64,000 bases of DNA from Cheilinus undulatus (Eukaryota): contig NC_054885.1 of assembly GCF_018320785.1 (NCBI RefSeq), positions 15,045,132-15,109,131 of the forward strand, written 5' to 3'. Shown here piece by piece: positions 31,101-54,089 of the stretch; position 1 is the stretch's first letter; each line of letters starts with the position of its first letter. Below the pieces are notes generated by a model, which saw nothing but the letters and a program-made list of their open reading frames with translations, was not told the DNA's origin and searched no databases. The translations under genes and the position numbers were made by a program.

Positions 31101-32419
31101 TGCTTTGTGTCTTTTTGTGTTCATTCAAACCCCTGATATGTTTCTTTTTGTCTTTTTTTGTTTGATCCTGACTTTCTGTAGTTGCTTTGTGTCTCTGTCA
31201 CTGATCTCTGTATATTCAGGAATCAATCCATGATCAGTGAAATACATCTTTACCAAGCAGTGACCTCTGTGATTGAAAAGTGAAGTCAATGTGGGCGTGT
31301 TAAAAACTGCAGTTCCTCTAGTGTCCACTTGGGGCTGGCTGCAGAAGTACCAGAAGTCACATACAAACCATTTGACCATTTGTTAAAATATCTGTTTTTT
31401 CACCAGAAATAAAGATGTTTACAGGCTTGTTCAAAAATGACTTTGGTCAGAGTAGTTCATGTCTTTATAGGCACTTGTTCTTCTGGCTGTTTAGAAGTTT
31501 ACAAGTTGTGCATAACGAGGAATCTGTCAGGAGGTTTGAGGCCTACCTCAGCTCCTACTCTTTGATAAAAAGCCCCCCCACCCCATCAAGTTTGGCTTCA
31601 GTGAGGTTTTAATGTAACCAATCATTATCAGTATATTACTGTAACTTTGAATAATCTATATTCTGTCATATGGTTACACTGCTGTTTATCATTTAATATA
31701 AGCACTAACATAAGAACACGGTTTGTCTTTTTTGTTTTTTATTCCAGAGATTAGCTAGATTATAAATGGTTGTAGAGGGTGAGATGGAGTCCAATGTTAC
31801 AGAACCGGAGAGCTTCTGGGTATGAAATGCTTTCTTTAAAATTTAGACATCATCCCATCTCATCTGCATCATCAGAAACAATATTACATCTTAAAAGCAT
31901 GTTTCAACAATTTGAACATGCTTTGACAAGGAAAACGCGTTACTCTAACCTCCATGATGACGCCAACACTGGTAACAGTTTTATGTTGCTGAAGAAATTG
32001 TTTAATTTTTTTATGCATTAACTGTGTTTTGATTAAAAACTGGTGCTACTCTCAAGGATGTAGAGTAAATATTAAGGCACTGTTAGCTTAGCCAGTTAGC
32101 TTAGCTAAGCACAGAGACTAAAAACAGGGAAAAAGCTCTAAATGAACAAATAACTGATGCACATGTCAAAAACTCACAAAATAATAATGATCATAAGGAA
32201 ACAGTAGGGTTAACTATTCTAAAGGGGATTATGTGCTGCCAAGCTAGCTGTTTCACCCCTGCTGATGTCTTTGTGCTAGGCTAAGCTAAACTAAGCTAAT
32301 CATACCAGCTTCTTAATTGTATGTTCCCAAATGCCTAACTGTTCTTTTCATATTTTATTAAAGACCAAAGATAAATGTGTATATCTGTACATACATTTTT
32401 CCAGACCATCCTGCAGGAG

Positions 32420-32582
32420 ATGGATCCACTGTGGACCACCACGGTTCTGCTGGTGCCGTGTGTAGTCGTGCTAACAGCTGGCTTTTTCTACCTGTACGGC
32501 GCAGTTATCGGCCTGCTGTCCAAAACATCAGTGCGCAATAAGGTGGTGGTCATCTCTGATTCTTTGTCTGGGCTTGGAAAAG
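32420..32582 (+). CDS. dhrs7b: dhrs7b coding exon 1 (MDPLWTTTVLLVPCVVVLTAGFFYLYGAVIGLLSKTSVRNKVVVISDSLSGLGK), TM helix and start of the NAD(P)-binding motif
   Basis: ATG at 32420; donor GTAACA. Aligns to human DHRS7B MDFITS...NAVVVITGATSGLGKE. Confidence 0.85.
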
Positions 32583-32666
32583 GTAACAAGAATGATAAAA
32601 GACATCAAAGTTTCTTCTACCTCTTGAATCAATGCAGTTAACGTTGTTGCATGTCTTGTTTTGAAG

Positions 32667-32779
32667 AATGTGCTAGTGTTTTTCATAGTGGGGGAGCCAG
32701 GCTGATCCTGTGTGGGAAAAGTTGGGAGAAGCTTGTAGAGCTTGCAGATGATTTGGCAAACGCCTCAGACCCAACTCTG
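32667..32779 (+). CDS. dhrs7b: dhrs7b exon 2 (ECASVFHSGGARLILCGKSWEKLVELADDLANASDPTL)
   Basis: Acceptor TTTTGAAG and donor GTAAGT. The phase is continuous with exon 1. Confidence 0.85.
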
Positions 32780-33013
32780 GTAAGTCTGAAAGAGAAAATA
32801 AGCTGTTGGGCGACTGATTGTATTTGTTCTGTACCTGGAAGTTCTCCTTTTGGCGGATAGTTTCATCTACAGTGTTAAAGTTTGACCAAAAGATGGAAAA
32901 AGGAAATGATAAGTCCACTTTAAAGGTTATACAGCTGAAAGATGAATGTAGAGTTGTAAAATTACGCAGTAATGTTAAATGGATGGATTTATGAAACAGT
33001 TGTTCTTTCTAAG

Positions 33014-33224
33014 ACATTCCCTCCTAAACTGGTGCTGCTGGATTTTGGAGACCTGGAGAGCTTGCCCGAGGCCATTGAGGAGATCCTGGAATGTTACGGC
33101 TGCCTGGACATCCTCATCCTCAACAGCAGCATGAAGGTGAAAGCCCCCGCTCAGACTGTGTCTCTGCAGATGGATAAACTGCTGATGGACAACAACTACT
33201 TTGGACCAGCAACGCTCGCCAAAG
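33014..33224 (+). CDS. dhrs7b: dhrs7b exon 3 (TFPPKLVLLDFGDLESLPEAIEEILECYGCLDILILNSSMKVKAPAQTVSLQMDKLLMDNNYFGPATLAK)
   Basis: Acceptor TTTCTAAG and donor GTAGGC. Contains the DILVNNAG-like and NYFGP motifs. Confidence 0.85.
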
Positions 33225-33394
33225 GTAGGCAGTAATAACACAAGAACTACAAATCACTGCGCTGTGGTGTCACTTCTTCTTATGCTGATCTGCAGTTTGT
33301 TCAGCATTATTTATGTTTAAACACTGTTGCTTCTGGTTTGTTGAGCCCTACCATACACCCAACATGTGTTTATGAGCAGCAGAGCTGAGTATGT

Positions 33395-34680
33395 GGGTTG
33401 CGCCCATGGAAAATTCGCCACAACTTCTCTGCCAATGCCAAACAGCTTATTCTGCCTTTGACTCTTGTTTGGTGTTGTTTGGTGGAGTAGAAGAACAAAG
33501 TTTGAAGAAACAAGACAAACTGGCAGTGTAACAACATATTAATTTAACACACAGGAGTCTCAGTAGTGGTTGGAAAAACCATACACAGCCACAACAACCT
33601 GGCACCTCTTCCTACTGGTCACCAGCCTGGAAACTCATTGCTGATCATAACGTTCCTCTACATGTTCAGCTTCCAAATTAATGTCCAGCAGACCACTGCC
33701 ATTGCCGGCACCAGTGCAAATAGGCCTGACTATGAAGGGCTGCGCACGGTCTGTTCCAGATTGTCTGGGCAGAGATCCGTCAGCCATATCGTCCTGCAAA
33801 TCTTGACTGCAAATCTCCCAGCCAGCATCTCCATGTGGGCCCTGTATGGGTAATATGGGATTCCATGGTGGCCCCACCTGTGACTGCCCCATCTCTTGAG
33901 ATCCAAGATAGATCCTTCTTGTAGTAGACATGGGCATCTCTAGATGGGGCCTATATGGGACTCATATGATCCATGCTTGCAGTTCACATGGGCAATCACA
34001 GACGGGGCCACCATGGAACCCACAGACAAACACACATGGGACCCATACTGAAGCCCACATGTAATCCATGTGGGGCCCACAAGGACATGCTAGCTGGGCT
34101 GTGGAAGACAGCCTACAGTTCACAGGTGCTGACAGGGTGAGAAAACAGTTTTCTTGATTTCTTGGGATGCCAACTTTGTAGCCTGTCTCTGGCATCCCCC
34201 ACTTATTTTTTTAAAGATTTATTTTTGGGCCTTTTCATGCCTTTATTTGATAGAGGAAGGACAGTGGATAGACTCGGAAACAGGGAAGAGACATGCGGCA
34301 AAGGGCCACAGGTCGGATTTGAACCTGGGCCACCCGCATACATGGGTGGCACCTTAAACCACTCAACCATCTGTGCTCCCGCATCCCCCATTTATATTAT
34401 GGAAATTGGCATTCAGTTTGAACATGGTGCCAGGGCTTACTCCAGATATGCCACAACTTTGTTTTGGGGAACACCAGCTTGAAGTTGCCCTATTGCACTG
34501 TCCTTATCCAGATCAGTGAAACTTGGCATGCCAATTTTTGGCGCAGACACCTACTGACCACTATGGCAGGGCCCATGCTCACATGGCTTCTGGTACCTCC
34601 TTCAAAACAAGTCATTAGCAACAGGGAATCAAGCTGTTTGGCATTGGCAGAGAAGATTTGCCAAATTTTTCATGGACACA
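33395..34680. mobile_element. ~1.3 kb element bounded by ~55 bp inverted repeats (33395-33450 and 34620-34680) in dhrs7b intron 3, probably a non-autonomous DNA transposon
   Basis: CCATGGAAAATTCGCCACAACTTCTCTGCCAATGCCAAACAGCTT is approximately the reverse complement of GCAACAGGGAATCAAGCTGTTTGGCATTGGCAGAGAAGATTTGCCAAATTTTTCATGG. The interior has degenerate CATGTGGGCC/CCACATGGG sub-repeats. Confidence 0.45.
34190..34390 (-). repeat. tRNA-derived SINE copy (GGTTCAAATCCGACCTGTGGCCCTTTGCCGCATGTCTCTTCCCTG...AATAAAGGCATGAAAAGGCCCAAAAATAAATC on the minus strand)
   Basis: T-loop-like GGTTCAAATCC and the characteristic fish SINE tail. Related copies lie at 43083-43215 and 42700-42880. Confidence 0.55.
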
Positions 34681-34878
34681 ATCCACATTTTCAGCTCTGC
34701 TGCTCATCCTACAAACGGTAAAAGATTAATGCCAAGAAGCATTGATACAACAAAGAAATGTGTTGGACAGTTGTATGTCAAGTGTTTTGACGAATCGTGT
34801 ATCCAGTCAATTGAAGGTTTGTGTTAAACTATTTTTGTCCCAAGTCTGTCAAAAAATGTTTTTAGGTGTCATATTTTT

Positions 34879-34900
34879 TGTGTGTGTGTGTGTGTGTGTG
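34879..34900. repeat. (TG)11 microsatellite immediately upstream of the dhrs7b exon 4 acceptor
   Basis: A perfect dinucleotide run 20 nt before the 3' splice site. Confidence 0.9.
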
Positions 34901-34923
34901 CATTTCACACATTTGTGTTTCAG

Positions 34924-35016
34924 GTGTACTGCCATCGATGATCTCCAGGAGGACCGGTCACCTGCTGCTAGTCAACAGCATCCAGGGGAAAATAGCTGTA
35001 CCATTTCGGACTGCAT
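34924..35016 (+). CDS. dhrs7b: dhrs7b exon 4 ([31 protein letters not shown])
   Basis: Acceptor TTTCAG preceded by a (GT)n run; donor GTGAGT. Confidence 0.85.
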
Positions 35017-35205
35017 GTGAGTTCAGGGATTTTTATTCAAAACAATGTTTGAATGAAAATAAAGAGGTTTTAGCTTCCAGCAGCATAGATTGGTTCCTCT
35101 GGCATGTTTCTTAAGCTGAAAAAAACGAATCTGCTTCTTGCTGTTAGTGACCTGAAGAGATAAAATTTTCCTCTAACAATTTTACTGTTTTGCATATCTT
35201 TGTAG

Positions 35206-35352
35206 ATGCAGCCTCCAAACATGCAGTTCAGGCATTCTTTGACTGTCTGAGAGCTGAGGTGGAGGAGTATGGCATCTCTGTGAGCACAATCAACCACACC
35301 TTCATCAGCAGCTCAGCCACTGAATGTCCCTCCTCCAAATCCATCTGGTCCC
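35206..35352 (+). CDS. dhrs7b: dhrs7b exon 5 ([49 protein letters not shown]), catalytic YxxxK
   Basis: Acceptor TTTGTAG and donor GTGAGT. YAASKHA is the SDR active-site motif. Confidence 0.85.
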
Positions 35353-35571
35353 GTGAGTTATCAGTACAAACTTACCAAATCGTTTTCTGTTTTTTAATAC
35401 CAATATTTAGTACAAATACAAGCATACTAACATATCAAGACTGTTTGTCAGTGCTCCTGTCCACCTAAGGTGTAAAGCAAAGATGTAAACTGTAACTTTT
35501 TGGGTAGTTTGTGGATATTTTTCAGTAACAAAAGCTCTACCTGACGTTTTTATTCCCACCCCTTTTTGCAG

Positions 35572-35777
35572 TGCTGTACACAAAGAAACCTCTTGGGGTT
35601 TCTCCAGATGAGGCAGCAGCTGAGATCATGAAAACTTTGAGTAACAAAAGGAAAGAGGTGCTGATCGCTCCCTCGCTCCCAAAGATGGCTCTCTACACCA
35701 GGTCCTTCTTCCCAAACGTCTTCTTTGCTGTGATGGCTGCAGGTGTAAACCATGCAGCTGCCTCTGAGAACATGTGA
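35572..35777 (+). CDS. dhrs7b: dhrs7b exon 6 (LLYTKKPLGVSPDEAAAEIMKTLSNKRKEVLIAPSLPKMALYTRSFFPNVFFAVMAAGVNHAAASENM*)
   Basis: Acceptor TTTTGCAG; stop TGA at 35775-35777. AATAAA at 35851-35856. Confidence 0.85.
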
Positions 35778-36879
35778 GGCTGCAGCTGTACACTGTGATG
35801 AGAATATGAAGGTGAAACTGAAGTGGAAATGTTGCTGTGAGGCTGAGATAAATAAAAAAAAGTGATATAATTTTTCCCCTCTGTTTTTTTTGCTTTCCTT
35901 GACCTCAAAATCCTCAGAACACATATTAAAATAAAATAATGTTACATTTGGTCTTGTATTTGGGACTTGATATCAATGATGTTACAAATAAAAGTCCAAG
36001 CCACAATCATGTCATTTTTATTCTTATCTACTTTCTCATATTTTTATGTATTTTTGTTATAGAAACATTTACTGTTTGAAATTGAGTGCTAAAACATTTA
36101 TTTTTCCAAAGATGGGAGGATGAAGACTCTTGAAGGGATAAAGCTTTCTTTCCGTGTGTGCCAAAAACATTTGAAAGCTCTGGGGTTTCATTTTCAGGAA
36201 AAACAGTGCCATCTAGTGGCAGAATGAAAATACAACAGCTGTTTGAAAGTGAGACAAAAACACCGGTTCAGCTTTTAATTTCTGCAATAAAAGTCATATA
36301 ATGCCAAGTGTCCATTTATGGAATCCATCATATACATCCATTTAAAGAGCTATCTATTATTTTTTTTCTTCCTTCAATGAAATAAAGCACAGTTTAAGAT
36401 AAAGCTACGTGTTCAGAGCAGATTTCAATCCTCCCATAACAGTGTAGAGCCTAAAGATCAAAATGCTCAATACTGCAGGATGCTGTTTTGACCATCCTTT
36501 TTCGAACCCTAACCTCTTTCTGAGGCACTGTGAAAAAAAAGGTTGGAATATGTCAAAGACATGCAACATGTGCCATAGACACATGTAGACAAAAATTGTT
36601 GGTATCCTTCCAGTGAAGAAAGAAAAACCCACAATGGTCAATAAACTAAGCTGAAACTGACAAAAGTAATATAAATAAAAAATTGCTGATAAATAACAAA
36701 TGAATGAATTGTGGTTCAGCAGAATCATTTAATAAAAGCCTAATGAAAGACCTGGACAAAATTGATAGTACGCCTAGAAAAGATGCAAAATAATCAGACC
36801 ATAGAGACATGTTAAACAAAGGTGTGTCCTGTTTATAGTGTCACAGGTGTCTTCAGACTTGTGATCAGTCAGTCTGCCT

Positions 36880-37320
36880 ATTTAAAGGTTGAAAAGTAGT
36901 AACTTTGGTATCATGGTGTGTACCACACTGAACATGGACCACAGAAAACTAAGCTGCTTTGCTGCATCTGGCACAAGGTGTCTGAATCTATGCAGTGCAC
37001 AGTGAAATCTCAAGACAATCAAGGAGCAGAGTGTGCTGCCCAGTGTCAGAAAGCTTGGTCTCATTCGCAGGTCATGGGTCCTCCAACAGGATAATGACCC
37101 AAAACACACAGCTGAAAACAGCCAGAACTGGTTAAGAAGAAAACCTTGGACTATTTTGAAGTGGTCTTCTCTGAGCCCTGATCTAAATCCTTCTGAACTT
37201 CTGTGGAAGGAGCTTAAATATGCAGTCTGGAGCTCTCCTTTGGTACAAAATGCCTTATGCTTTATGTCGGTGAACATGTGAAACTGACTCATTATTACAT
37301 TTAACAAAAAAGAGATTTTT
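36880..37320 (+). mobile_element. Tc1-like transposase fragment (WVLQQDNDPKHTAENSQNWLRRK...WSSLSPDLNPSELLWKELK)
   Basis: Track ORF 37033-37281 carries the DDE-region motifs. Confidence 0.7.
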
Positions 37321-37899
37321 GTTCTTTAGCACATAAACACAGTGTCTAAGATCCACTGTTTGTAACAGCAAGTTTATTTCGGAGTTGTATTGAAATTTTG
37401 ACTTTAATCTCGAAATTTCGACTTTAATCTCAACTTGCCCAAAATCATTTTCTCCTTCAAAGGTTTCCCTAATCTATGGAACCCAATTTCCTCCGGTTAA
37501 AAAAAAAAAAAAAAAAAAGATAGGAAAATTAAAATAATAATGATAAAAAAAAATGTTAAGTCATAATTATGAGATACAAAGTCATAATAATGAGATACTA
37601 AGTCAAAATTATGAGATACTATCTCATGATTACGCACGACAACTTCATGTTGCACGATTTTGACATTGATTCTTTCAACTTTTAAGGGTAGGATGGAAAA
37701 TGTCCTCACATCCTGGAGTGTCCCACCTACATCTTGATCAAGCGAAGTATGAGAAGCCATCTTGAGCTCTTATTTTGAAGGCCGGTAGTTCTCTTACGAT
37801 GTCATGCGGGGTGCCTAAGTGTTACTTGACGTTGAAGAAGAGGGTGTCCATGACTATAATTATAATAAAGCAGCAGCGCAGAGGGTGGGCAGTGATTTC

Positions 37900-38187
37900 T
37901 TGCTCACAGTCACTCGGCTGAAATGTTTTTTCTCCTCTCCGTGTCGTGGCCACATTGTCGTCTCCGTTTGGAGCTAGCTTAGCGGGCTAACGTTAGCCAG
38001 TGAGCTAGCATGAGCTCGCGCTCAGTCTGCTGTTGTTTACATGCAGTGACGATGATGATGATGATGGTGATGGTGGTGATGGGCCTGGAGAGGTGTGTAA
38101 GCTAACTCAACTACAGATCTGTGTGAGGAGGCAGAGTCATCAATTAACCCGCTCTGAGAGGACCACCTGACCCACTGCAGCCTCAGG
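37900..38187 (+). promoter_or_regulatory. CpG-rich putative 5' non-coding exon/promoter of the RAI1-family gene, with a (GAT/GGT)n repeat at 38053-38085 and donor GTGAGA at 38188
   Basis: CpG-rich (CG dinucleotides frequent); the downstream coding exon begins immediately after an acceptor. No in-frame ATG reaches the main ORF. Contains a short poly-Met upstream ORF. Confidence 0.3.
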
Positions 38188-38762
38188 GTGAGACAACCGG
38201 ACAGCTAAGCTAACCCGAGTTAAACCGCTCTCATGAATGTAAGTTAGCTTCCGTGTTACAGGCAGGTTAGGGCACCTTTAAACGGGCCTACCTGTTCACT
38301 CTTATTTTTCAAAACCTCCGCTAAATGACCCAAAATATGTCATTTTTATCAATAATGTACTTAAATCATATCTATTGTATTTAGTTTGAAACACATATGA
38401 CGTATTTTAAAATGAAATATATTCTTATTTTAAATGTTATTGTGAATAATATGATTTAACATTAAATGAAGCGTTTACTTAAAAGTACCTTTATTAAGAA
38501 ATATTTATGAAAAAAAGCGGGTTTAAAGACGTCATTTTTGTCTTTTGAACATCTTGATTAGTTTTCATATGTTTGACAATTCATATAAAATGTTTGTTTT
38601 ACCTACAGAGTAACCAGTAAGTTATGTGGTGCTAGATATCTAAGTTTTAAATGTATATTGTATTAACAAATCCCATAAGAAGCTGTGCTAAGGACATAGC
38701 TTCACCTAATAAAAACAGGTTAAAACACCTATTACTGATGTGTTATTGCATGTCTTGCAGTG

Positions 38763-40667
38763 ATGGATGTGTCCTCTCAGGATCCATCTCTCCTAGTCAT
38801 GGACCTTTCTAAGGGTTACTCTGCCCCTCCCCTGATCCCCCGACACACCGAAGCCAAGAAACCTGAGTGGTACCACCGCCGACCCCCCAGCTCAGAAATC
38901 AGCTCTTCCTACAGATCCAGGCCCTCATCTTCATATACCTCCCTGGACCCAGGTCCTCCTGTCCTCTGCAGGGACATGGATCAGAGTCCTGAGTCTCTTG
39001 GAAACTACATGAATTCGACACTCACTCCCAGACTTGATCTTTACCGCGTGGACGGTGCAGGTAGAGTTGGAGTCCATGGCAGCCTGTGGCATCCAGGTTT
39101 CTACGGACCAAATCAGACAGGGGATGCAGGTCCTGAGAGCAGCGGGGGGGAGGAGAGCGACAGCGGCTCAGATGTGATCTTTCTTGTGTCTTCGTCCAAA
39201 GAGCCGCTTTTGTGCAGTCCATTCATGCAGGACGGAGTAGGACACATGGCGGAGCCGCTGTCCCCCACTGTGTCCTCACTGGATGAGGGACAAGTCTGTT
39301 ACCACCTCCCCCAGCCTCTGAGCTCCCCTAGTCCTGACAGCTCATACTCTGATGATTCGTCAGACAGCTCGGTGGACATCCCTGTCCATCACACACGGCC
39401 TGTCGTCCTCCTGTCAGACCTCAGCACTGGGTTCAGAAACCCTCCTGAGTCCGCAGGGGATGTCTCCAGTGAAGACAGTGATGTGATCGAAGTTTCAGTT
39501 TCCAACAAGAAAAAGAAAAGGGCATTTCTTTGTAAGAAGAAGGAAGTGGAAAAAGCTCCAGAGAGAGAGGTGAGACGCAGCTCCAGGGTCACAAAGTCCA
39601 CCCCTGAGCCTCCAGCGTCCCCCTGCAGCACAAGAAGGAGCGTCTTGATGAGACGAGCCAAAAAGGATGCAGTGGGAATCTACAATGAAAGTGGGGACTC
39701 TGATGACCTGTTGGAGTATGCAGCCAGAATGTCCAGCTCAGACGAGGAGGAGACGCTCTTGGAGCCCAACAAGCTGCAGAGACTGAGTAGCAACTCAAAC
39801 CAGTCTGACATGGACTCACAGACAAGTAGGAAGTCAGTGCAGAAAGAGACGGTGTCTCACCGTAGACTGTCTAAAAGCGTTGGTCGTAAGCAAAAGACAA
39901 GGCTCACTGCTTGCGAAACCAAAACGATAAGAAGAACTGAGCAGAAACAAAAGAGCAGAATCAATTCAATGGCCCAAAGCAATGAGTCAGCAGTCAAACA
40001 GAAACCTGCAATGAAGCGGAGGAGAAAATGTCGCTCAAAGACAGGAGCGTCTCCTCGTTTTCTTCCCAACGAGCCTGAGATCAAACTGAGACACATTAGC
40101 GTTGCAGAGAAAAAGAAAGAGAAGGAGAAGATGTCTGGGTTTTTCCGTCCATTCATTCACATAGAACAGAGGAGGTGTACTGTCATAAACTTTCAGAGGG
40201 AGGAAGAGACAGTGAGGAGCAGAGGAGAAAGACAGCAGCAAATCAGCAGGACTAAGTCTCTGTCTGGGTTTGTCCCTAACTCGTCCTGTTTCCAGCTGGG
40301 CCGTTTGGGACCAGATAGCCTGGGTCAGACCACGTTAAGATGCTGTCTGTGTGGTCAGACAGCCAATGCCATGGGCCTCGGAGATCTTCACGGCCCGTAC
40401 ATCCTCTCCAGCCCATCTGTGGACTGTCAGGTTCAGGACCAGGAGGAGAACAGGGCTTCGGGGACTGAACAAGAAAAGAGTTCATGTGAACTTGTAAACG
40501 GCGACGCAGAAAATCTTTCCTCTCTTAAAGATCTGAACCCTAAGGTGTCTCCTCACCTGGATGAGTGCTGGATCCATGAGGACTGTGGGATCTGGTCTGC
40601 TGGAGTCTTCCTGGTTCAAGGAAAGCTGTACGGATTGCAAGAGGCAGCTCAGCTTGCACAGAAAACT
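38763..40667 (+). CDS. rai1: RAI1/TCF20-family protein, large coding exon (635 codons). Contains EPEIKLRHIS...FRPFIHIEQRRCTVINF, a nuclear localisation signal, and the first half of the extended PHD finger (CCLCGQTAN...ECWIHEDCGIWSAGVFLVQGKLYGLQEAAQLAQKT)
   Basis: ATG at 38763 immediately after an acceptor CTTGCAG. A 651-aa track ORF. The motifs EPEIRLKYIS/TTICTVVN and the extended-PHD half match my recollection of human RAI1/TCF20. Donor GTAAGT at 40668. Confidence 0.75.
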
Positions 40668-42699
40668 GTAAGTCACAGAATGAGATCAGAACTCTGTGTG
40701 GAATTTGCTTTGTGATGTTAATTTACAGAAATATGAAATGTATAGAAATGTCAAGGTCTGAGGTTGTCAAATTGGTGATCCTTTGATACTTTCCAAGCCC
40801 TGAGTTTTAAAGGGAAATAATTTCAGCTCTTTTATTACAATAGCATCAGAAGGGAATTACCAAAGCTTTTTTAAAAAACCCTGCAAACGATCAACCATAC
40901 TTCTTTGCAATTTTGACCTTAGATGGAAAAAATAAATAGGGAGAAATGACTTTAAAACATTTTTAAAAGCACATCATTACAAAAGCCCTGAGGACATGCT
41001 TACATTTTATTCACCTCCATTTTCATGAGATAACACGTCAGTTTGGTTGTTGAGATTTTAGGAATTAACATATCATTGGTATGCCAGGTTTACTATTCTG
41101 AGAAAAGGACAGAAATAAGTCAGAGTCTCAGAGTCAGACTCTCTTGTTGAGGGCTTCTGCAAATCATTGACTTCTTACTAGGTGTGCAAGCCAACAGCTA
41201 GCTAAACTGTTAAAGGCAAATCACTTGGTACATGGCATCAGAATTACTAGTAAGTGAAGTAATTCTTGATATTTTTATCAGCTCAGGCTCAGAATCCCAG
41301 TCAGATGCTCTGTCTAGACTTCATCACAGCCACCCACCTCTACTAGCAACTGTAGCTTTGAGTGATAGCTGCTGTCCTGCTGCCATGATTTTTCAACCTG
41401 ATGCAAACAGCGATGAGCTCATAGCACCAACAAAACCTTGTAGGAACTGTGCACTATTTTGATTCAGAGAATGAGGGTGAAGTCGTATGTCGTCTGTGCA
41501 GGGCTACAATCGCACATAACTGAAGGAGTGAGTGACAACATGTGGCACAGCTTCTAACTGCTAACATTCGCTTGTCTACCCTAATATCGCTATAATACCA
41601 TCTTAGATAAATAGTACTTGATTTAGATTTTTATTGGTGTTTCTTGACCTTTGAGCAGTCAATCAGAGATGAGTATTGATATCCAGTACTGACACAGTAC
41701 CGGTACCAACACATCCAGTACCTACTGGTCCAAATTACAACACAGATATTGATACCATCACCCGGCAAAGGTACAGAATTTATGAGACTGTGTGATTTAT
41801 GTGCATGGACTTTATGTCAGCTAAAAGTGAACATCTTTGATTTGAGGAAATAATCCCACTGACTGACACTTCAACATTATTATTGTATATAGAAGTTGTG
41901 TGTATAGAAGTTAGACCGGTTTCCTTTTCTTATCTTATGTTCTGCTGGTATCTTTCAAAGACATTTTTGCAAATCATTTATGATACCCAGACAGCTTTTA
42001 CTCCCCAGCTGACTTTCAACACGCTCATTTTTTCTCGAAACAGTATTGACTTTGGGCACCGGGACCTATAAAAACTGTCTATGTTGGGCTGAAAGATTTG
42101 GGAAAATAATGTAATTGTGATTTCTTTAACCTGACATTTTGATAATATGCAGTTATTTCTTAAGTTCCTCATCTCATGTATTTTCCAACAAAAACAAGCA
42201 ATAATCCAATCTATACCACAGCCAACACAGTATAAAATAGATTAAACTAGGGCTGAACAATTGTAAAAAAAAATATCTAGTTGTGATGATTTTGACTCAT
42301 TTTGCAAATTGGATATGAACTGTTGTATTAAAGATTGATAATTTTTATGTAATTCTCATATTTAAGATGACAAACATTTAAAAAATGAAGAAAATAGGAT
42401 TTTTTTGTACACTATTCTAAAAATATGTCACTAGAATGATTGCCTGATATGTAATGTATAACAGCTCTGTTGCAAAAAACAATTTAAACTGGTATTTTGA
42501 CACAAATTTTAGGTCAAAGAAATATTGCACCTTCTATGATTTGAAAATTGCAACAGGCCATATTGTGATTTAATCTAAATTGCGATTAATTTCCCAGCCC
42601 TACTATGTATCAGGAGAATATCAATACTCTGCCACAGTGATTTTTCACTGACATGGATTTGTGATAGATGATTAGCATGATAATGCTAAAAGAGAGTCA

Positions 42700-42880
42700 T
42701 GTGCGCTGGGTTGGCTCAGTGGCTAGAGGCGGCCGCCCTGTGCAGAGGCTGGAGTCCTCTGGAGTCCATTGGTCATGGGATCAATTCCTGGTCTTGACAC
42801 TGTTTGGTGCATGTCCTGTGTTTCCTGTCTCTCTTCAGCTGTCCTACCTGATTAAAGGCAAAAATGTCCAAAAAAAATCA
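42700..42880 (+). repeat. tRNA-derived SINE (GGGTTGGCTCAGTGGCTAGAGG...GGGATCAATTCCTGG...CTGTCCTACCTGATTAAAGGCAAAAATG)
   Basis: A-box/B-box-like segments and the conserved fish SINE tail. Confidence 0.55.
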
Positions 42881-43437
42881 TCTTTAGAAAAAAGAAAAAG
42901 ATATTTCTGCAGATATTATCTGGCTATAAAAATCTGGCTATATGAGCTGTAAAAGTTGGCTGTATGATTAAGTTTAAAAAGGGCTATGTATAATTAATGC
43001 TGTTATCACTGAATGATCTGCTTTTCATGATTCACCTTTAAATTGGTGAAAAACAGTAAATTACTATTTTGAATTTATTTAAGTTTTTTTTTTTGCCCTT
43101 ATTTGGAGAGGACAGGGCAGAGAATATTGTTAGAAATCAGACAGAGAGGGGAATGACCAGCAAGAGAAGAGCCATGAGTCAGATTGGAACCTGTGCTGCC
43201 CACTTGGAAGAGTAGCTTCTGTTTATGGGGCGTGGTGTAACAGTATTCTGTGCAAGTCTTTCTTAAGGCCCAGTTTGAAGCCTGTGAAGTTAACTCAAAT
43301 GGAAAACATCAAACCTAAATTTTAATTCATCTAATGATGATGCAAGACTGAGAAAATTCTCAGGTTTAAAAAGTTTGTAGATGTTTTCTCATTACCTCAT
43401 CAAAATATCTTTACTAAATCTCTGTCTGTGTGTCCAG

Positions 43438-43531
43438 GTGTGCTCAGACTGCAAACAGACAGGTGCAATCATGGGATGTTTCCAGAAGGGCTGTGAATTA
43501 AACTACCACTACAGATGTGCCATCCAGTCAG
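43438..43531 (+). CDS. rai1: RAI1-family extended-PHD exon (VCSDCKQTGAIMGCFQKGCELNYHYRCAIQS)
   Basis: Acceptor TGTCCAG and donor GTACAG; phase 0 in. Matches human RAI1 [28 protein letters not shown]. Confidence 0.75.
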
Positions 43532-43683
43532 GTACAGTTTAAAGCCCTTACAGTATAAAAGCATAAATATAAAAGTGAAAGAGAAGATGTGTCAGTATGT
43601 CATAATATTTTAAAACAAACATCACCTCTTCCTCACTGACTTTAAAGCTTTCACATGTAGTTTATTTCTGTCTTTGTTTTCAG

Positions 43684-43733
43684 GTTGTGTATTAAACGAA
43701 GAAAACTTTTCAGTTCTCTGCCCGGAGCACAAG
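43684..43733 (+). CDS. rai1: RAI1-family extended-PHD exon (GCVLNEENFSVLCPEHK)
   Basis: Acceptor TTTTCAG and donor GTAAAC. Matches RAI1/TCF20 ...EENFSLKCPKHK. Confidence 0.75.
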
Positions 43734-44485
43734 GTAAACACTTGCAGTGTGAGGAGCTGAGTGGCCTCTGGGGGGCGCTGCTGTAGTCCTGAATTGTTCT
43801 ACAGTGGTATAAAGGTGTAGATGTGTGTGTGAATTGTTGAAGTTGGTGCATGATGGTGATGTACTCTAAAGATAGAAAGGAGACTGACACACATCAGAAT
43901 AGAAGTGTTTAAGATTTCCACAAAGATTATAATGAAGCAAAATAAAAAGTCAGTGTTATCTAATGTCAGACAACCTGAACTTCACACACTTTTAACCCAA
44001 CAGTGTAATGTTACAGTTGATGTCACATTCTGCTCTCTAAAATCAGACAAAGTTATGATGTGGGGTTTATTTTGGTTGATGTGTGGAATAAAATAAAGTT
44101 TGTTTATATGTGTTTGTTTAAAACAGAACAGGATGTTCAGTACAGTAACCAGACGACACAGGAGGTGACACAGACGGGACACTGCAGGTATAATTTATTT
44201 CTATTTATTTGTCTCTCTGCAGTTGTAGCAGTCTGTTTGAATAGATTTCAAAATATGTGAACATTTTTATTCACATCCATTTTATTCATTGTTTTTCTTA
44301 AGTTCCTAACTGGATTGTAAAAATGAAGCACTTCCTGTTTGTAAAATCTGTGCTGGATGTCGTTTTCTCACTGGAACCACATAAAAGCTGCTGATTGTTC
44401 CAACAGGCTGAATCACTGAGAGAAAATAGCTGATGGATTCAAAAATTGCCTAACTTTAAATGTGATTTCTTGTCCTTTTTTTCAG

Positions 44486-44518
44486 ATGACTCCACAGATC
44501 TCCTCAGGGTGCGACTAG
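44486..44518 (+). CDS. rai1: candidate terminal coding exon of the RAI1-family gene (MTPQISSGCD*); an alternative candidate is 44127-44168 (NRMFSTVTRRHRR*)
   Basis: Strong polypyrimidine acceptor TTTTTTTCAG, phase 0, and AATAAA at 44675-44680 downstream. Neither candidate can be confirmed from sequence alone. Confidence 0.25.
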   Translation: MTPQISSGCD

Positions 44519-45599
44519 TTGTGCCTAACTTCACCTCTGCTGTTTATAACACTGAGTAAAGTGTGCGTGTTTGTGTTGATGTTGAAGGAGTGTGTGTATG
44601 CGTGAGCGAGTGTATTTATTTCCCCTCTTGTTTCAAACTCACCCTGTCACAAACCCAGTTTATCTTATCAACATAATAAAAGTGATATTTTAGAGTTTAA
44701 ATGATTCTGTTTTTGTTTAGAAGATCTTTGTATAAGCTAATGTTTTTTTCTACAGTTTTTGTACTTTTCTATCACTGTTACAGCTGCAGTTATCACACAT
44801 AACACAAATATAACACTTTATTTATTATGAGCAGACTGCATGTTTGCATTTGTGCACTTTACTTTATAATTTGATGGTTAAATATGCCTTTCATTGAATT
44901 TGTTTTGACCTTTTTACCAAATGTATTTAAATTTTATTAAAGCTGCAAAAACATAAATATTGATGTAAATAAAAATGTGTACGTCTTGTTTAAAATCACA
45001 CTATAGTTTTACAGCTGAGGACATCCCCTTTACCTGGGAGGCAAAGTTAACTTATTCATTTTACACTAAGTTTTGTTCCATGGATGTTTGATTCTGCTCA
45101 CAACAATCGAAAATAAAGAGCCTCAAACATAACAGAACATCTGACAGAGTTCACAACAGAAAAATATGCAAACACCACAGTTTAGTGGAGAACTTTCTCT
45201 TATGTGACTGGGTCAGTTTAACTAAATCACAAATTAATCCATGACTTTGCATTGTCTGGTATCAGATGATTGATTGATTTAAATTTGTGGAATAACTCGT
45301 TAAGAAGCACAGGAGCAGGATTCAACCTCGATGATTTCTTTGAATTGACTTTTTAAAATGATGGATTTGTATTTGATGTACATTCTGAACATTTCTGTTT
45401 TTATTGCTTTCATGTGAAGCTGCAGCTTTGATTTCTTACTTTATTGAACCTGAATTGTTTCTGATTTCTTGAAAAATAACATTGATTTAACATTTGACAC
45501 AGTGAAAGGGTTTCATCTGCAGCACCACTTCATTATTTCATATTCATTTTTTTCCTACAAATGTGAGCAGACCTTGTTTGTTGGACTCAAATTGGAAAC

Positions 45600-46660: not shown

Positions 46661-48579
46661 CACAACAGTCCTTGAGCTAATTCCAAATAGAAATGACAAA
46701 ATGTGACAAAATCAGGACATAATTAAACTTTTGACACACACCCTGTGATATCTAAAGGTTAAAAAGCAAGAAGGGGGTGAGAAAGACAAGGACACTAATG
46801 ACTGAATGGATGAGAACGAGTTATCTGCTTCTCTCTTGTTTTTGCTCAAAATAAGGTGCATCACAAAAGCTGCATCCTCATCTCATGCCAGTTCAAGAAA
46901 AAGGCCTGTTTGATCAATCTGTTGTTCCATCTCACAGCCAGAGATCTTTCTAGAGATCTTTTCTTCTTGCATTTGGCTGTTTTAGCTTGTGAGATGATAA
47001 AAAGAACTGAAATAGAGGAAAACACAACGAGGTAGAGAGAAAGAGACAGGGTAGAAATTGAGCTTTGTCTCCTCTAGCCTCATGAATCCTCAGAAAACAC
47101 ATTTTTCAAAACAATTTATTACTTTAGAAGAAAGGGCATGACATATATACAGTATACAATATATATATGTATATATAACACTCTTCAAACATACTATCTT
47201 TCCTTGCTGTATAATACATTTAGTACATCAGACTTTGCACTGCAAGTCCTGTCATGATACATACTCATACATTTACATATAGAGAGATCTCCTAGTCTAG
47301 GTTCATTTGCTTACCACAGGGTTCTTTGTCTTTTTCTTTAAAATGAATAATTGCAACATGTTTTAGCTGCCTTTAGCTTGTAGCGGCCACATAGAGAGTT
47401 CTCATATTAGGCAGCAGGAAGCCCTTTGCCCAGATAATCTTTCAATACTGGACTCGTTTGAACCCTGGGATAAACAAAATTGTCATCTGGGTTGAAAAGC
47501 AGACTCTGAAATCCAGCACTGGCTCTGGTCCGGCTCGTCTTTGGCTCACACACACTTTTTAATTTTACCGCAGTGACTTGTGCATCACATGTTAAAATAT
47601 TCCTGATAGATTTTCTTGTAAATTTGGCCACTACATCCACAGCCCGTCAGGTAATACTGCTAATTGTAGCTAAGAATGTGTATTTTGTTGAGCTGGAACA
47701 CACAGCGTGTGGTCAGAGTCCCTTTTCCACCCATTTTTCATTTAAAAATCATATTCTCTAATGTCTGCAAAACCAGCTGCTTTCAACAATTTAACTACAC
47801 AAAATCCCCAAAGTATCATTCAATGCTGACACAGTCTGAATATAAAAAATAAATCCTTACATAGTATACATTTGCTTATAGAACCCACCTGGACTTGACA
47901 TGGGGATATAAATTAAAAAGAATTAAACTATTTTCACATTTGAAGTAAAAAAAAAATAAAAAATAAAAAATAAATTTGGTAACGAGAACAAAAACTCCAC
48001 AACATTCATTTTACACAAAAAAGTGCATCTGATTGAAAACTGATCCTTAAGCTATAAAGGGAGTGTTTGGTCCAGACACACTAGAAAATAAAACCTTCTA
48101 AATTAAGGCCTGAAGTTGAAAACCATAAAATAAGCATTGTTCGCCTCTTAACATAAAAACCAAGCTCATAGTAAAGCCTTTTACTGCTATTATCTGGCAC
48201 TTTGTCTGCTGATAATACCTTCAACACTAAAGAGCTCAAGCAGGAGCTCTTAGACGGATATGTCACAAGTAAAGGACAGAAGAAGACTGGGGAAAAGGAA
48301 TTTAAAGGAAAAGCACCCTCAGTTTGTCTTGAAAGGTTACAGAGCTAACTCACATTTTCTATGGGAGTTTATCTGGCTAGAATGGTGTGACACAAATGCT
48401 GTTGAAAACAAAAACAGTAGCTTAACAGCTGGGTGTTCGAGAGTCTCTACACATGAATTAAACATTTCTGCATCAGAACAAAATCTGTTTCCAATGTTGT
48501 GACTGAATTTCCACGCAGCTACTGTGCCCATAAAAAGAACTAACCCCCTTTCATTGATTTCATTAATTAATCTTAAACA

Positions 48580-48860: not shown

Positions 48861-50934
48861 TGGCACTGAAGCTGGAAATGACATTTGTCCTTGTTGGCTT
48901 TGTGAAATAAAGAAATTTAAATTAAATTTTGTATGAACTACAAAAATAAAATGAATTAACACTGATGCAGTTTTTCACTCATAATAAGAATGACAGCTGA
49001 AAATTTCTCTACTTTATGAAAAAGTTATTTTTCCAAAAGTATAAAATTGGATATAAAAACTTGTTTTGCAAAAATGTAAAATGTCTTTCGTCCAGGTTAT
49101 TAGCAGCATGTTTACATTATTCTGGCCCAGTTATATCTCTTCTTAAGGCTTGTGGCCACAGTTTTCTAGCTGGTAGGTCCGTATTTTCTACACAAAACCA
49201 ACATAGGTCAACATTTTCACCACTTTCATCATCCTAGGTTAAAATATGGCCACATTAGCTGTGTTATGCACTGAGACCTCTCACAGTTTTGAATAGTTAA
49301 ACTTTTGGCCACTGCTGCACTTCTATGTCCTTCTACCCCACCAACCAATCAAAATCAAGAAGGAGGTGGACCTCTAACAACAATTGACTGTCACACTTGT
49401 TTCTTATAGGGTAAAGTTTCCAGACAACACAATTCCTTTCCTTTTTGAAATATTAACTTTGTGAAATTTCCTAAATAATTCAAAAATTCAGGATATAGAA
49501 AGCAATTTTAAACAGACTTAAGCCAAGGACAGAGTGTACAATTTAGGCACAATTACACCTCATTTATAAGGATTCAGGTACTGTTGGCACCAAAAATTGG
49601 TAGTTTCATTCTTTACAGTAGTAAATGACAGTCAAGGCTATTTCATCTCACATCCTCCAATGCAAAAGCGAGCGTGTGTGATGTTTGTTTCTGATTCTCT
49701 GATTTGTTCTGTCACATTAGCTGAATTTTAAGTGCAGTCGTGGGGAGGAGGGTTTCCGGTTTGGGGACCTCAGAATTTAATCTCTACTGTTTTCATTTTT
49801 TTGTCATGAAAATCTTTCTGCACTGTTCTTTGCTCTTTATTTGACACAGAAATGTGGTCCAGCTCTGATAAAACTGCAAGGCTAAATGCTACACTGGCGA
49901 CAGCCACCGCTATCTGCATTCCATTGCAACTAAACCCCGCCTCCTTCTCTCCTAAAATGATGCTGATTGGTAAGGTCCCTTCTCAGAACGGGCTTAATCG
50001 ATTGGAGCTTTGCAAGATGTATCTACCTGATGACAGACATGGAATCTGGCCAGTCTGCTATTCAATTTAACTGCCAAAACATAAACCTGTTAGGGGTGTG
50101 GACACAGGCCCTTAGACATCCTTCTGAGTTTTCCAGGATCATCAGATAAATATTTCTGAGCTGCTTTATCACAAATTTAACAGTAATAGAAGGAGTGATG
50201 CTGCAGTGTATTATAGTCCACTAAGAATGCTGTCAGTAGAAGAGGTTGTATTGTTAATTTTGACTCAATGCTGTCTTAATTGCAAAAAACAAGGAAACTT
50301 AGCTAAACATTGTTCTTCTATTAAACTCCAGTGTAGCTGCTCTACACGTGTACATTACTCTTCTGTCTTTCAAACATGCAGTCAGAAATCTAGTCTGCAT
50401 CGGAAATAGCTTAATTGGCTTTCATGGGGTTCAAGAGTGGAATTTCTTTAAAAAAAACAGACATGAGTGAAAAACAAGGAGAAAACCCTTCCCAGCAGGG
50501 TTTAAACCCCACTGGGCAAACTTGAGATTGAAGCTGCTGTAGCTTTAAACCGGTGCTGAGCTAAAAGTTTATGAAGCTCCTACAGAAAGTAAACTCTGGA
50601 GAGGAAACTTTGTAAAGACACAACCGGTGCATAAATGATGGAGGGCATCATTAGGAGTGTTTGTGTGACAGATCAGCAGCCCACCAGATGCTTAGTCTGT
50701 TTGTTTGCCCCACTGGTGAGCATGAGGGCTGTCGCTGGGCACGAAGGCACTGATGATGTAAAATGTCTGGATGTGTGCAAAGATCTCATTGAATCATTTG
50801 AACAGTTGCTAAAGTTTGGTAAGTTTAACATAACACTGACTTCTAGACCACTTCCTGGTCTCCATTCCTGCTCTGGATGTGTTCAGAGAGGCTACAGATA
50901 CTGCTGAGGCGACTGTGCCAACCAGGCAGGCTCA

Positions 50935-51163
50935 TCAGCACAGAATCTGGGAGAAGGGATGTCTGAGCAGCTCCTCTGCGCTGGGTCTGTGTTTGGCCTC
51001 CACAAAAATGCAGCTGATGAAGTTCTGCGCCTGGTCCGAGGTGTGCGAGGGCAGCAGAGGGTTGGTGGGCTGTGTGGCGATCTTGAATATGGCGGCCATG
51101 GCCTCAAATTCAGCCCAGGGAGGTTTTTCTGTCAACATTTCTACCACCGTACAGCCCAGACTC
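50935..51163 (-). CDS. map3k3: map3k3 last coding exon ([76 protein letters not shown])
   Basis: Acceptor TTTTCCAG; stop TGA is the reverse complement of 50935-50937. Kinase subdomains IX-XI of MEKK2/3. Residues [10 protein letters not shown] favour MEKK3. Confidence 0.8.
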
Positions 51164-51882
51164 CTGGAAAAGAAAAAGTGCATTCTGAAGCAGAGTCACA
51201 TAACAAGCTGAAACAAATAACCACGTATTACGTCTCAGCGGCCCCACATCTAAGCTCTAAAGGAATGTTTTGAGTGTAAACTCTCATTCTCCTCCTCCTG
51301 TCTGGGAGGTAAAAGCCCTCCTGGAAGGATAACTCCCCGTCCAGCATGGGACATACCAGCCCCTCATACGACCTGTCTGACTGGCTTACAGCCAATCACA
51401 TCACTCCTCGTCACAACTTGTTCAGTACATAAGAGAAAATGAACTGCTCTGTGTGGGGGAGACATGGTGTGAAGTAGGTTACATACAGAAAACTATTTCA
51501 GCATTCTGCATGGCTCATCCTGACAACTCCTGTTGCAATGTTTCTCTTTAAATTAAAGCTCCAATGAGGAATTTTAAGATAGTGTGGAGTTTGGCACCCC
51601 CCTGTGGACTAAATGGTATCTCTAATCACTACTGCTTTTGTCTGTACATGTACAAGGTATTCTTTTTCAACCAAAAAGGGGGTGTAAAATAAATCACAAT
51701 TTCACCATTATGGAAATAAAGGCTTTTACACTAAACACATTAAAAGAGTCTTGATTTATCACAATAAATAAGAAAAAACTACTCTAGGCAAAAAAGAAAA
51801 ATGTTCTAACTTAGCATGTGTACATTTTAAGATGCTCTCACAGCATTTTAATGCCATCAGACAAAATTCAAGATGGGTTTAA

Positions 51883-52190
51883 GCCAGTGGTTCTCAACAG
51901 GTGGGTTGGGACCCAAAAGTGGGTTGTGAAGCCCTTTTCAGTTGGTCGCTGATGTGTGCCTGAGAAAAAAGTTGCGCAAAACTGTCTATGAGACGCTATA
52001 AAACATGCATTTTTTTACCTTTTTTCATTGTTTTTTTACACCTTTTGTACTGTCTTAGGCCCAGTTTGTACTATTTTTTATTCAAAACATCTGATTAACC
52101 AAAAAGATCTCCAAAATTTGGGTCGCGATTCTCCTTGAGGGGTTGATGGTGGGTCCTGTGACTCAACCAGTTGAGAATCACTGGTTTAAG
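51883..52190. mobile_element. MITE (~310 bp) with ~40 bp terminal inverted repeats (GCCAGTGGTTCTCAACAGGTGGGTTGGGACCC ... GGGTCCTGTGACTCAACCAGTTGAGAATCACTGG)
   Basis: A perfect-looking inverted repeat pair flanks an AT-rich non-coding core. Related half-sites occur at 13495-13540, 15600-15670 and 16330-16385. Confidence 0.6.
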
Positions 52191-52844
52191 CAACTGCCGA
52201 TCCAGTGCTAAAAAAATAACCTAAAGTTATTTTGGATTCACAAGAACCATGTTGTAAATTGCTTAAGCTAATAGGACTCTTTAATATTAGTTTATCACAC
52301 CTCATATCATTTTCATCATTTTGAAAATTGGTACTGCACATCAATTTTTTTCTCATATGGTGCAGGCCTAACATAAAAATAGAATATAAGTCCAATATAA
52401 CAAAAATGTGATTGTAAGATTCAAGTTAATTTCCTATTTTTAAGCCTTTAGAAACTCCCTGAATTTATTTGGAATTATGTCACGTGTAATTTCATACCAT
52501 AATATACAGATCAGAAGGAAAAGATTTTACAACGGCATCAGCCAATTCAGACACAAATTTTTAGTCATACAACTTGCTTGAAAGTTACGTCAACTTTCAT
52601 CCTGATAGGGTGTCGTTTGGTATGGGTATGTTATCTAATGAACAAATTGTTCTGTCAGTTACATGTTTTTATCATGCACTTCCACTTTCAAAGAAGTTCA
52701 AGCACTTTCTAAACCTTAAAAACACAATATAATTCAGGCATTTCAAGCACCTGTATGAACCCTGTAAAAGGTAAATAAAAAGTAAAAATTGTAGTAAAAG
52801 TAGATAGTGACAGGAAAGGCAGCAGCATATATCTTCAGCTCTTA

Positions 52845-53024
<180 letters not shown>

Positions 53025-53147
53025 TTAACAGCAGAGTTGACAAGAAACATAAAAATATTATGTCACCACTGAGCTGCCGTGTCAGCAAACAGAAACTCCC
53101 ACAATAATCCGGTGTTTAAAGAGGCCTCTGTAGTTCAACAGGACTAC

Positions 53148-53899: not shown

Positions 53900-54089
53900 C
53901 TGTAGTAAAAACAAAAGGCTGTCAAATAACACACTAAAGATTTAAACAATCCCTGTGTGATACTGGATTTTTGCTGATAACCAATATGCTCATATTTCAG
54001 CCGATACTATAACATATACAAATTTTTTTTCATTGTAAAAACACTAGCCTCTTAAAGTCTTACTTGTCACTAATTTTTGTCATCAAATA

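Follow-up and report, generated by a model that had tools for sequence, protein, structure and literature searches.

RAI1 and TCF20 (SPBP) are dosage-sensitive human neurodevelopmental genes located on chromosomes 17 and 22, respectively, the former being the Smith-Magenis/Potocki-Lupski gene, and the roles of the individual domains of their products are debated. Both proteins carry a C-terminal extended PHD (ePHD) domain with three hallmarks, namely a tryptophan two residues before the third zinc ligand, a tryptophan three residues after the fourth, and an extraordinarily long loop between the second and third ligands (Darvekar et al., PMC3799622). The fragments SPBP(1551-1666) and RAI1(1523-1627), as well as both ePHD domains, bind nucleosomes in vitro (PMC3799622). 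Co-precipitation of RAI1(1569-1906) with the PHF14 PZP domain and cross-linking of the TCF20 and RAI1 C-termini to PHF14-HMG20A have also been reported (bioRxiv 10.1101/2021.10.12.462922). The sole phylogenetic study of the family described two vertebrate clusters, based on sequences chosen partly by protein size (PMC3799622). Herein, we analyzed a 64,000-nucleotide (nt) stretch of the Cheilinus undulatus genome (NCBI RefSeq assembly GCF_018320785.1, contig NC_054885.1, positions 15,045,132 to 15,109,131 of the forward strand; hereafter referred to as the window), which contains a compact gene of this family encoding a protein of 696 amino acids (aa). The gene is neither rai1 nor tcf20 but a member of a third branch that the RAI1/TCF20 (SPBP) family has in jawed vertebrates, an identity and classification in which we place high confidence.

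The affiliation of the compact gene with the RAI1/TCF20 family, which had been proposed in an original prediction made from the letters of the window, was confirmed by its C-terminal module. The Pfam zf-HC5HC2H (ePHD) domain was detected at aa 605-683 (E 3.8e-10) above the curated cut-off, and the C-terminal part aligned with both RAI1 and TCF20. All three hallmarks of SPBP/TCF20 and RAI1 were present in the protein: the signature tryptophans W603 and W611 (E-C-W603-I-H605-E-D-C608-G-I-W611) were invariant in 68 orthologues, and a loop of 74 residues, variable across the orthologue alignment, separated C530 from H605. Every Cys/His ligand of the ePHD was also invariant in the 68 sequences. Among the solved structures, the ePHD of KMT2D was the best sequence match. 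The full-length AlphaFold2 model built with the 68-sequence alignment was of low confidence (mean predicted local distance difference test score (pLDDT) of 47), and the ePHD part alone was used; the PHD part was the sole folded part (pLDDT 75-86) and, in a Foldseek search, matched the ePHD domains of PHF7 and PHF6 and the PZP domains of JADE1 and BRPF1.

The segment preceding the ePHD contained a conserved E-box, in which E437, F461, P463, F464, C472, and N476 were invariant. Since aa 429-546, which aligned to approximately residues 1605-1728 of a mammalian TCF20, overlap SPBP 1551-1666, the E-box was regarded as the homologue of the C-terminal portion of SPBP/RAI1's nucleosome-binding region. 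The basic cluster located immediately upstream, which is kept as RRKRKRR in the orthologue consensus, is a likely nuclear localisation signal (NLS) as judged from its composition. The gene structure was also that of the family, in which one very large coding exon ends within the ePHD and is followed by small exons, and the intron positions in the ePHD (with breaks following '...A(Q/R)xT' and '...(Q/E)(S/I)G') were identical among the window gene, the true rai1 of Cottoperca gobio, and the elephant-shark gene. The E-box, the long-looped ePHD/ADD, the two hallmark tryptophans, and the positions of the introns are thus common to the compact gene and human RAI1. Human RAI1, on the other hand, is a 1906-aa protein with Gln-rich activation regions that have no counterpart here, falls in a separate clade, and occupies a separate locus in fishes. 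Human TCF20/SPBP has the C-terminal module in common as well, but is 1960 aa in length, possesses an activation domain at its N-terminus as well as an AT-hook DNA-binding domain, and belongs to a separate clade. No AT-hook core was found in the 696-aa protein, which has neither the length of about 1900 aa nor the Gln-rich N-terminal activation half of these relatives; both traits characterize the two named subfamilies and not the module common to the family.

To place the gene within the family, neighbour-joining trees were constructed from approximately 270 trimmed columns with bipartition bootstraps and a mollusc CG5098-like outgroup, in a 28-taxon and a 46-taxon version; a HMMER search with aa 436-635 retrieved 355 relatives, 30 of them named. 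As a result, the RAI1 clade including the Scleropages and Triplophysa RAI1 was recovered with 97-100% bootstrap and the TCF20 clade (shark, lungfish, mammal, and teleost) with 84-96%, and the window gene fell outside both. It was found in a third clade (77% with 28 taxa and 69% with 46 taxa), within which, in the 28-taxon tree, the compact genes formed a group with 100% support and the longer teleost proteins (about 900-1275 aa) one with 94%. Also belonging to this clade were two genes named si:dkey-94l16.4, those of elephant shark (1296 aa) and coelacanth (1066 aa), and the lungfish gene LOC122799216 (1931 aa); lungfish and coelacanth additionally have RAI1, and lungfish has TCF20 too. The invertebrate single-copy homologues (Drosophila CG5098-like and those of molluscs) resemble the window protein in the C-terminal E-box and ePHD (28-34% identity over about 240 aa), but are 1100-1700 aa in length, have unrelated N-termini, and are older than the vertebrate duplications. 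No tetrapod member of the third clade was found among the named matches or in a search with the lungfish protein, which was word-based, so that loss is not proven; the latter search returned one close full-length relative, a Logan protein. Another Logan family member, of 1815 aa, sat on a long branch next to TCF20 and fell in none of the three named clades; it may be a further lineage, such as a cyclostome one, or a divergent copy.

The N-terminal regions of the third-clade proteins pointed to the same grouping. A hidden Markov model of the N-terminal blocks of the window clade matched the Chanos, Oncorhynchus, and Scleropages proteins; the N-termini of Chanos and Oncorhynchus matched Scleropages, which in turn matched Latimeria, further N-termini of the si:dkey-94l16.4 type matched Protopterus and Callorhinchus, and those of the three basal third-clade proteins matched one another. 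None of these blocks had a match in RAI1 or TCF20. Because the N-terminal profile of the compact clade gave no direct match to the shark, coelacanth, or lungfish proteins, its homology to the basal proteins was shown via these intermediates. Furthermore, a large PH-domain (mprip-like) gene adjoins the compact or third-clade gene in Labrus, Cyclopterus, Cottoperca, Clarias, and Callorhinchus, and the shared N-terminal blocks and the shared PH-gene neighbour constitute two independent lines of evidence backing the third clade. The si:dkey-94l16.4-type genes (the longer teleost, elephant-shark, coelacanth, and lungfish genes given above) resemble the window gene in their clade, their N-terminal blocks, and the region around motif A (Table 1), and have the PH-gene neighbour in common with the compact orthologues. 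They differ from it in being longer, in having no strongly acid/Ser-flanked V-I-x-V motifs, and in keeping an intact 'RG.RLEAIVQNI' box, of which the window protein has a remnant only (EREVRRSSR). In Clarias, the likeness extends to the whole gene order, since its 909-aa copy lies in a PH(+)/gene(+)/kinase(-) arrangement as does the compact copy in Labrus and Cyclopterus. This arrangement fits two copies left by the teleost genome duplication, which the tree resolves weakly (55-57%).

Of the other readings, the one that fared best was that the gene is a teleost-specific duplicate of tcf20, as implied by the database name 'transcription factor 20-like'. In addition to the name, the slightly higher BLAST identity of the ePHD to TCF20 than to RAI1 would fit such an origin, as would the linkage of the compact gene to tcf20 on one chromosome, deduced in several percomorphs from contigs of identical length. 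Nevertheless, the TCF20 clade excluded the gene, which grouped with elephant-shark, coelacanth, and lungfish genes that coexist there with TCF20 and RAI1, and the N-terminal blocks and the PH-gene neighbour are common to the basal genes and not to tcf20; we thus consider this duplication improbable. Full-length tcf20 (2400-2500 aa) was found in the same species as the compact gene.

As summarized in Table 1, the locus consists of six exons, four of them coding, and is intact and transcribed. The closest database protein (97% identity) was encoded on a 2,599-nt contig of the Logan assembly of run SRR19345933, and the spliced alignment of this mRNA contig to the window comprised six blocks (37838-38191, 38760-40669, 43438-43533, 43680-43733, 44125-44187, and 44483-44613). 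Being approximately 97% identical to the window DNA (synonymous divergence dS of 0.086), the mRNA derives from a close relative and not necessarily from the same species as the window. The single 635-codon exon described in the original prediction was reproduced, from the ATG at 38763 to 40667 and the following GTAAGT donor, and the peptides quoted there were all located in frame (EPEIKLRH at 40071, FRPFIHIEQ at 40143, VCSDCKQ at 43438, EENFSV at 43698, DVIFLVSSS at 39171, and DSDVIEVSVS at 39474). Its two small ePHD exons were likewise recovered (43438-43531 and 43684-43733), but a third small coding exon (44127-44168) had been missed, and the segment 44486-44518, which had been read as coding for MTPQISSGCD and a stop, lies past the stop codon of the mRNA and belongs to the 3' untranslated region (UTR). 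The product of about 690 aa (693) given earlier was corrected to 696 aa. The peptide encoded by exon 5, NRMFSTVTRRHRR, matched the C-terminus conserved in all orthologues, CPEHKN[KR]xF..TR..[KR]R, and skipping of exon 5 to give the C-terminus MTPQISSGCD was rejected, having no support from any transcript or orthologue. All the splice sites were canonical and the open reading frame (ORF) was intact.

Table 1. Features of the compact gene and of the surrounding window. Positions are those of the 64,000-nt window.
Feature	Position	Strand	Description and basis
Exon 1, 5' UTR	37838..38187	+	mRNA contig bases 1-362 align to 37838-38191, then jump to 38760; GT donor at 38188
Main exon	38761..40667	+	635 coding codons: disordered N-terminal region, putative NLS, E-box, first half of ePHD; ORF, splice sites, colinearity with mRNA
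SIM-like motif A, DVIFLV (aa 137-142)	39171..39188	+	Context eesdsgsDVIFLVsss; motif scan, at least 90% conserved columns
SIM-like motif B, VIEV (aa 241-244)	39483..39494	+	Context ssedsdVIEVsvs; motif scan
Basic cluster KRRRKCRSK (aa 417-425), putative NLS	40011..40037	+	Sole 8-residue stretch with at least 6 K/R
Conserved E-box EPEIKLRH...FRPFIHIEQRRCTVINFQ (aa 437-480)	40071..40202	+	BLASTP and tblastn alignments to RAI1 and TCF20
ePHD/ADD first half, split GATA-like finger	40260..40667	+	Zn ligands C527, C530 ... H605, C608; orthologue alignments
Coding exon 3	43438..43531	+	First part of atypical PHD finger, VCSDCKQTGAIMGCFQKGCELNYHYRCAIQS; splice sites, mRNA, shared introns
Coding exon 4	43684..43733	+	End of PHD finger, GCVLNEENFSVLCPEHK; splice sites, mRNA, shared introns
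Exon 5	44127..44187	+	Codes NRMFSTVTRRHRR, then TGA; coding sequence ends at 44168; mRNA bases 2409-2471 align to 44125-44187
Last exon, 3' UTR only	44486..44613	+	Past the stop codon; mRNA bases 2469-2599 align to 44483-44613
mprip, first exons (presumed)	2269-7694	-	About 31 kb upstream, pointing away from the compact gene; u2af2 and SDR gene between
u2af2-like gene (presumed)	11328-22171	-	RS domain 21824-22171; RRM exons 19627-19869, 11742-11990, 11328-11738; six-frame translation by eye
Short-chain dehydrogenase/reductase (SDR) gene	32375-35780	+	Pfam adh_short on two exons; degenerate nucleotide-binding motif VVVISDSLSGLGK
map3k3/map3k2-like kinase gene	50800-63000	-	Convergent with the compact gene at its 3' end; Pkinase exons by Pfam
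Tc1/mariner-type transposase remnant	25647-26740	+	Nearly intact but frameshifted, its two long ORFs (186 and 206 aa) lying in separate frames
Tc1/mariner-type fragments	14954-15430, 18401-18737, 36918-37307, 61374-61598		Transposase remnants

The outer limits of the first and last exons (37838 and 44613) represent the ends of the mRNA contig only. In the 5' UTR exon (within 37850-38110, +), a pair of short upstream ORFs was noticed, which begin at about 37850 and about 38010; the second spans a GAT/GGT trinucleotide repeat (38040-38080) that differs in length between the window and the mRNA contig. At the other end of the transcript, the stop codon lies in the penultimate exon, 19 nt upstream of the last exon-exon junction (44166-44187, +), which by the 50-55 nt rule is close enough to escape nonsense-mediated decay.

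The transcript also bears on the suggestion that the 696-aa protein is a short isoform made from an alternative promoter of a long gene, with the exons coding for the N-terminus located upstream. What had invited this suggestion was found as described in the original prediction: the first ATG stands just behind a splice acceptor (AG at 38759-38760), the A at 38763 being the third base of an exon that begins at 38761, i.e., 2 nt into it, and an upstream exon does exist. This exon had correctly been noted to have no continuous ORF. It cannot extend the reading frame because of an in-frame TAA at 38145-38147, and in the spliced mRNA the stop precedes the ATG by 14 codons with no intervening ATG. 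Since the first exon of the spliced mRNA is thus non-coding and carries an in-frame stop, the ATG at 38763 was assigned as the start, in agreement with the orthologues, which have a common MD/EVSSQDP start. The neighbouring SDR gene ends at about 35780, approximately 2 kb from exon 1. In tblastn searches of the whole window with full-length RAI1 (wrasse, sea bass, Cottoperca, and zebrafish) and percomorph TCF20, no N-terminal match was obtained; the matches were confined to 40143-40685 and 43441-43533 and came from the C-terminal parts of the queries, as expected from the earlier remark that the Gln-rich N-terminal half has no counterpart here. We therefore regard an alternative-promoter isoform as very improbable. 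An Rfam scan of the whole window gave no matches.

The gene was further compared with the teleost relatives that align with it over nearly its entire length. More than 120 teleost proteins of about 580-800 aa aligned over approximately 99% of the query at 45-97% identity. The majority bore the name 'transcription factor 20-like' or 'uncharacterized protein si:ch211-165g14.1', with 'retinoic acid-induced protein 1' used for a few, and the window gene is the orthologue of zebrafish si:ch211-165g14.1 (NCBI 'transcription factor 20-like'). The best named match was that of the wrasse Labrus mixtus (72% identity in the search and 75% in the alignment), whose locus is colinear with the window from 37755 onward. 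Proteins of the same size class were found in salmonids (742 aa), Lota (742 aa), Chanos (810 aa), Brachyhypopomus (736 aa), and more than 100 acanthomorphs; the Denticeps protein is of similar size (670 aa), although its assignment to either teleost copy is not clear. Zebrafish si:ch211-165g14.1 and its teleost orthologues agree with the window gene in identity (45-75% over about 99%), start, motifs, C-terminal tail, size (650-800 aa), and neighbours (PH-domain gene and map3k-like kinase), and with nothing essential differing they represent the same gene. A difference was seen in the position of the PH-domain gene, which adjoins the orthologue loci, whereas mprip in the window lies about 31 kb off on the other strand.

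The original prediction had favoured rai1 itself, shortened at its N-terminus in this lineage, on the grounds that the C-terminal third aligns to RAI1 and that the gene belongs to a block with dhrs7b and mprip; human MPRIP lies at 17p11.2 near RAI1. Some automated annotations likewise name the orthologue 'retinoic acid-induced protein 1'. Both the neighbourhood and the tree turned out otherwise. The adjacent SDR gene looks more like dhrs7c than dhrs7b, mprip is separated from the compact gene by about 31 kb that include u2af2 and is on the opposite strand, and the immediate neighbours of the gene in the window are the SDR gene and a map3k-like kinase. The RAI1 clade (97-100%, with Scleropages and Triplophysa) excludes the gene, and full-length rai1 is present as a separate gene in many acanthomorphs, among them the wrasse Labrus bergylta (2030 and 2264 aa), Dicentrarchus, Cottoperca, and Cyclopterus, as well as in Danio. 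On LR131938.1 of Cottoperca gobio, rai1 (2230 aa) is located at 11.04 Mb beside a 1249-aa HLH gene, and the compact gene at 0.46 Mb beside a PH-domain gene, 10.6 Mb from rai1. RAI1 and SREBF1 are known to be adjacent in human, and the srebf1-like HLH neighbour of the Cottoperca rai1 was taken to match this adjacency. A lineage-specific truncation was also at odds with the teleost-wide compact size, the 650-800-aa form being common to salmonids, Chanos, knifefish, cod relatives, and more than 100 acanthomorphs. The synteny argument is understandable because the region relates to human chromosome 17, but the conclusion drawn from it was wrong, and identity with rai1 appears even less credible than an alternative-promoter isoform. 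In several percomorphs (Cyclopterus lumpus and Clinocottus analis), rai1, tcf20, and the compact gene are assigned to contigs of equal length and hence probably lie on one chromosome, the linkage of rai1 and the compact gene being verified in Cottoperca gobio.

The ratio of nonsynonymous to synonymous substitution rates (dN/dS) was 0.12 in the comparison with the mRNA contig, 0.22 in that with Labrus mixtus, and 0.195 for the N-terminal 430 codons alone; the disordered N-terminal 430 aa are under purifying selection. Together with the wide distribution of the orthologues, these values indicated that the compact size is old and selected, being neither a recent truncation nor a decaying fragment. 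A pseudogene retaining the ePHD, to which the absence of two-thirds of the usual family length and the low-complexity, Ser-rich, predicted disordered N-terminus might have pointed, can practically be dismissed in view of the intact ORF, the canonical splice sites, the spliced mRNA, the dN/dS of 0.12-0.22 that includes the disordered part, and the many short motifs invariant across 68 species.

The N-terminal region itself was unlike those of RAI1 and TCF20. BLASTP of aa 1-430 against 159 RAI1/TCF20 proteins gave no match, and the Gln content was 3.5%; in the AlphaFold2 model nearly all of these residues had a pLDDT below 50 and no secondary structure, so that the region is predicted to be disordered. 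Its invariant short motifs across the 68 species were MDLSK, KKPEWYH, LWHPGFYG, and VGIYNE. The whole protein is Ser-rich (14.4% S), as had been stated in the original prediction, which had also pointed out two SUMO-interaction-like motifs. The conservation of these sequence motifs spoke for that observation: among the 117 orthologues of at least 600 aa, the pattern of motif A, SD[VI][VI][FV]L[VL]S, was present in 111 and motif B in 112, the latter being kept also in salmonids, Chanos, and Brachyhypopomus. The two are the sole acid/Ser-flanked [VIL][VIL]x[VIL] cores in the protein, and both lie in predicted disorder. They match the definition of a SUMO-interaction motif (SIM), i.e., a hydrophobic core accompanied by an acidic/Ser run in a disordered region, and are accordingly candidates for this class by sequence. 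The flanking S-D-S-D runs look like CK2 sites by our own reading. None of the longer relatives or RAI1/TCF20 proteins scanned contained the motifs in this form.

The compact protein therefore keeps the chromatin- and complex-contacting part of the family without the activation half, and its N-terminus is a constrained disordered chain of short motifs. From these properties, we propose that it may serve as a nuclear adaptor for chromatin and the PHF14 complex equipped with SUMO-binding motifs. In such a mechanism, the protein would enter the nucleus through the basic cluster (aa 417-425), its aa 430-696 would dock on nucleosomes and/or Phf14-Hmg20a in the manner of the corresponding RAI1 and TCF20 region, and the two V-I-x-V motifs would bind SUMO, thereby linking the chromatin platform to SUMOylated partners. 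Because it has no activation domain, the protein could be a subunit that stands in for, or competes with, Rai1 and Tcf20. This mechanism is put forward tentatively, as one that may well prove incorrect, whereas the explanation as a whole, comprising the third-branch gene and a proposed adaptor role, is given a probability of roughly 0.85. A bolder scenario would be that an ancestral jawed-vertebrate third paralogue was lost in tetrapods, and that its clupeocephalan copy was pared down to the PHF14/nucleosome-docking module and newly gained the SIMs, becoming a SUMO-directed, possibly antagonistic subunit that competes with Rai1/Tcf20 for Phf14-Hmg20a; this we consider unlikely.

Several points weigh against the explanation as a third-branch gene with an adaptor role. 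The bootstrap support for the third clade was moderate (69-77%) and came from neighbour-joining on approximately 270 columns, and the split of the two teleost copies was weakly resolved, as mentioned above. The transcript evidence belongs to a related species (dS 0.086) and not to the organism of the window. The Labrus mixtus orthologue has a 3-residue deletion removing D-V-I of motif B (SSEDS---EVSVS, window aa 239-243), and motif B is therefore not indispensable. Every functional step was drawn from homology or motifs, and the RAI1 ePHD was reported to have no histone-tail binding (bioRxiv 10.1101/2021.10.12.462922).

The present classification implies that zebrafish and medaka models of the RAI1 and TCF20 disorders carry two further family members, si:ch211-165g14.1 and si:dkey-94l16.4, which could buffer or confound rai1 and tcf20 knockouts. 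A literature search for these two names found no paper; the gene has already been predicted in many fish annotations, the branch is not described in the literature, and no new kind of system is involved, the gene being otherwise an ordinary conserved and uncharacterised one. As a natural version of the family consisting of the C-terminal module only, the compact protein is usable to ask what this module does on its own. With regard to annotation, the stop was corrected to 44168 with the addition of the missed terminal coding exon, and calling this fish gene 'transcription factor 20-like' or 'retinoic acid-induced protein 1' is misleading.

With respect to the surroundings of the gene, the identities of mprip and u2af2 are presumed from their resemblance to the human sequences, and Pfam gave no match on their single short exons. 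In a tblastn comparison, the upstream SDR gene scored 379 summed bits with human DHRS7C and 236 with DHRS7B, values that are indicative only; the gene may thus be closer to dhrs7c. In Labrus mixtus, Cyclopterus, and Cottoperca, the PH-domain gene ends 1.4-6.5 kb upstream of the compact gene on the same strand. The order mprip(-), u2af2(-), and SDR(+) in the window is what an inversion of the block would give, and thus looks like a local inversion. The Labrus orthologue of the map3k-like kinase contains PB1 and Pkinase domains. Between the compact gene and the kinase, conserved non-coding similarity to Labrus mixtus was observed at 44426-44966 and 47159-48311. One of the Tc1/mariner-type fragments is located in the interval that separates the SDR gene from exon 1 of the compact gene.

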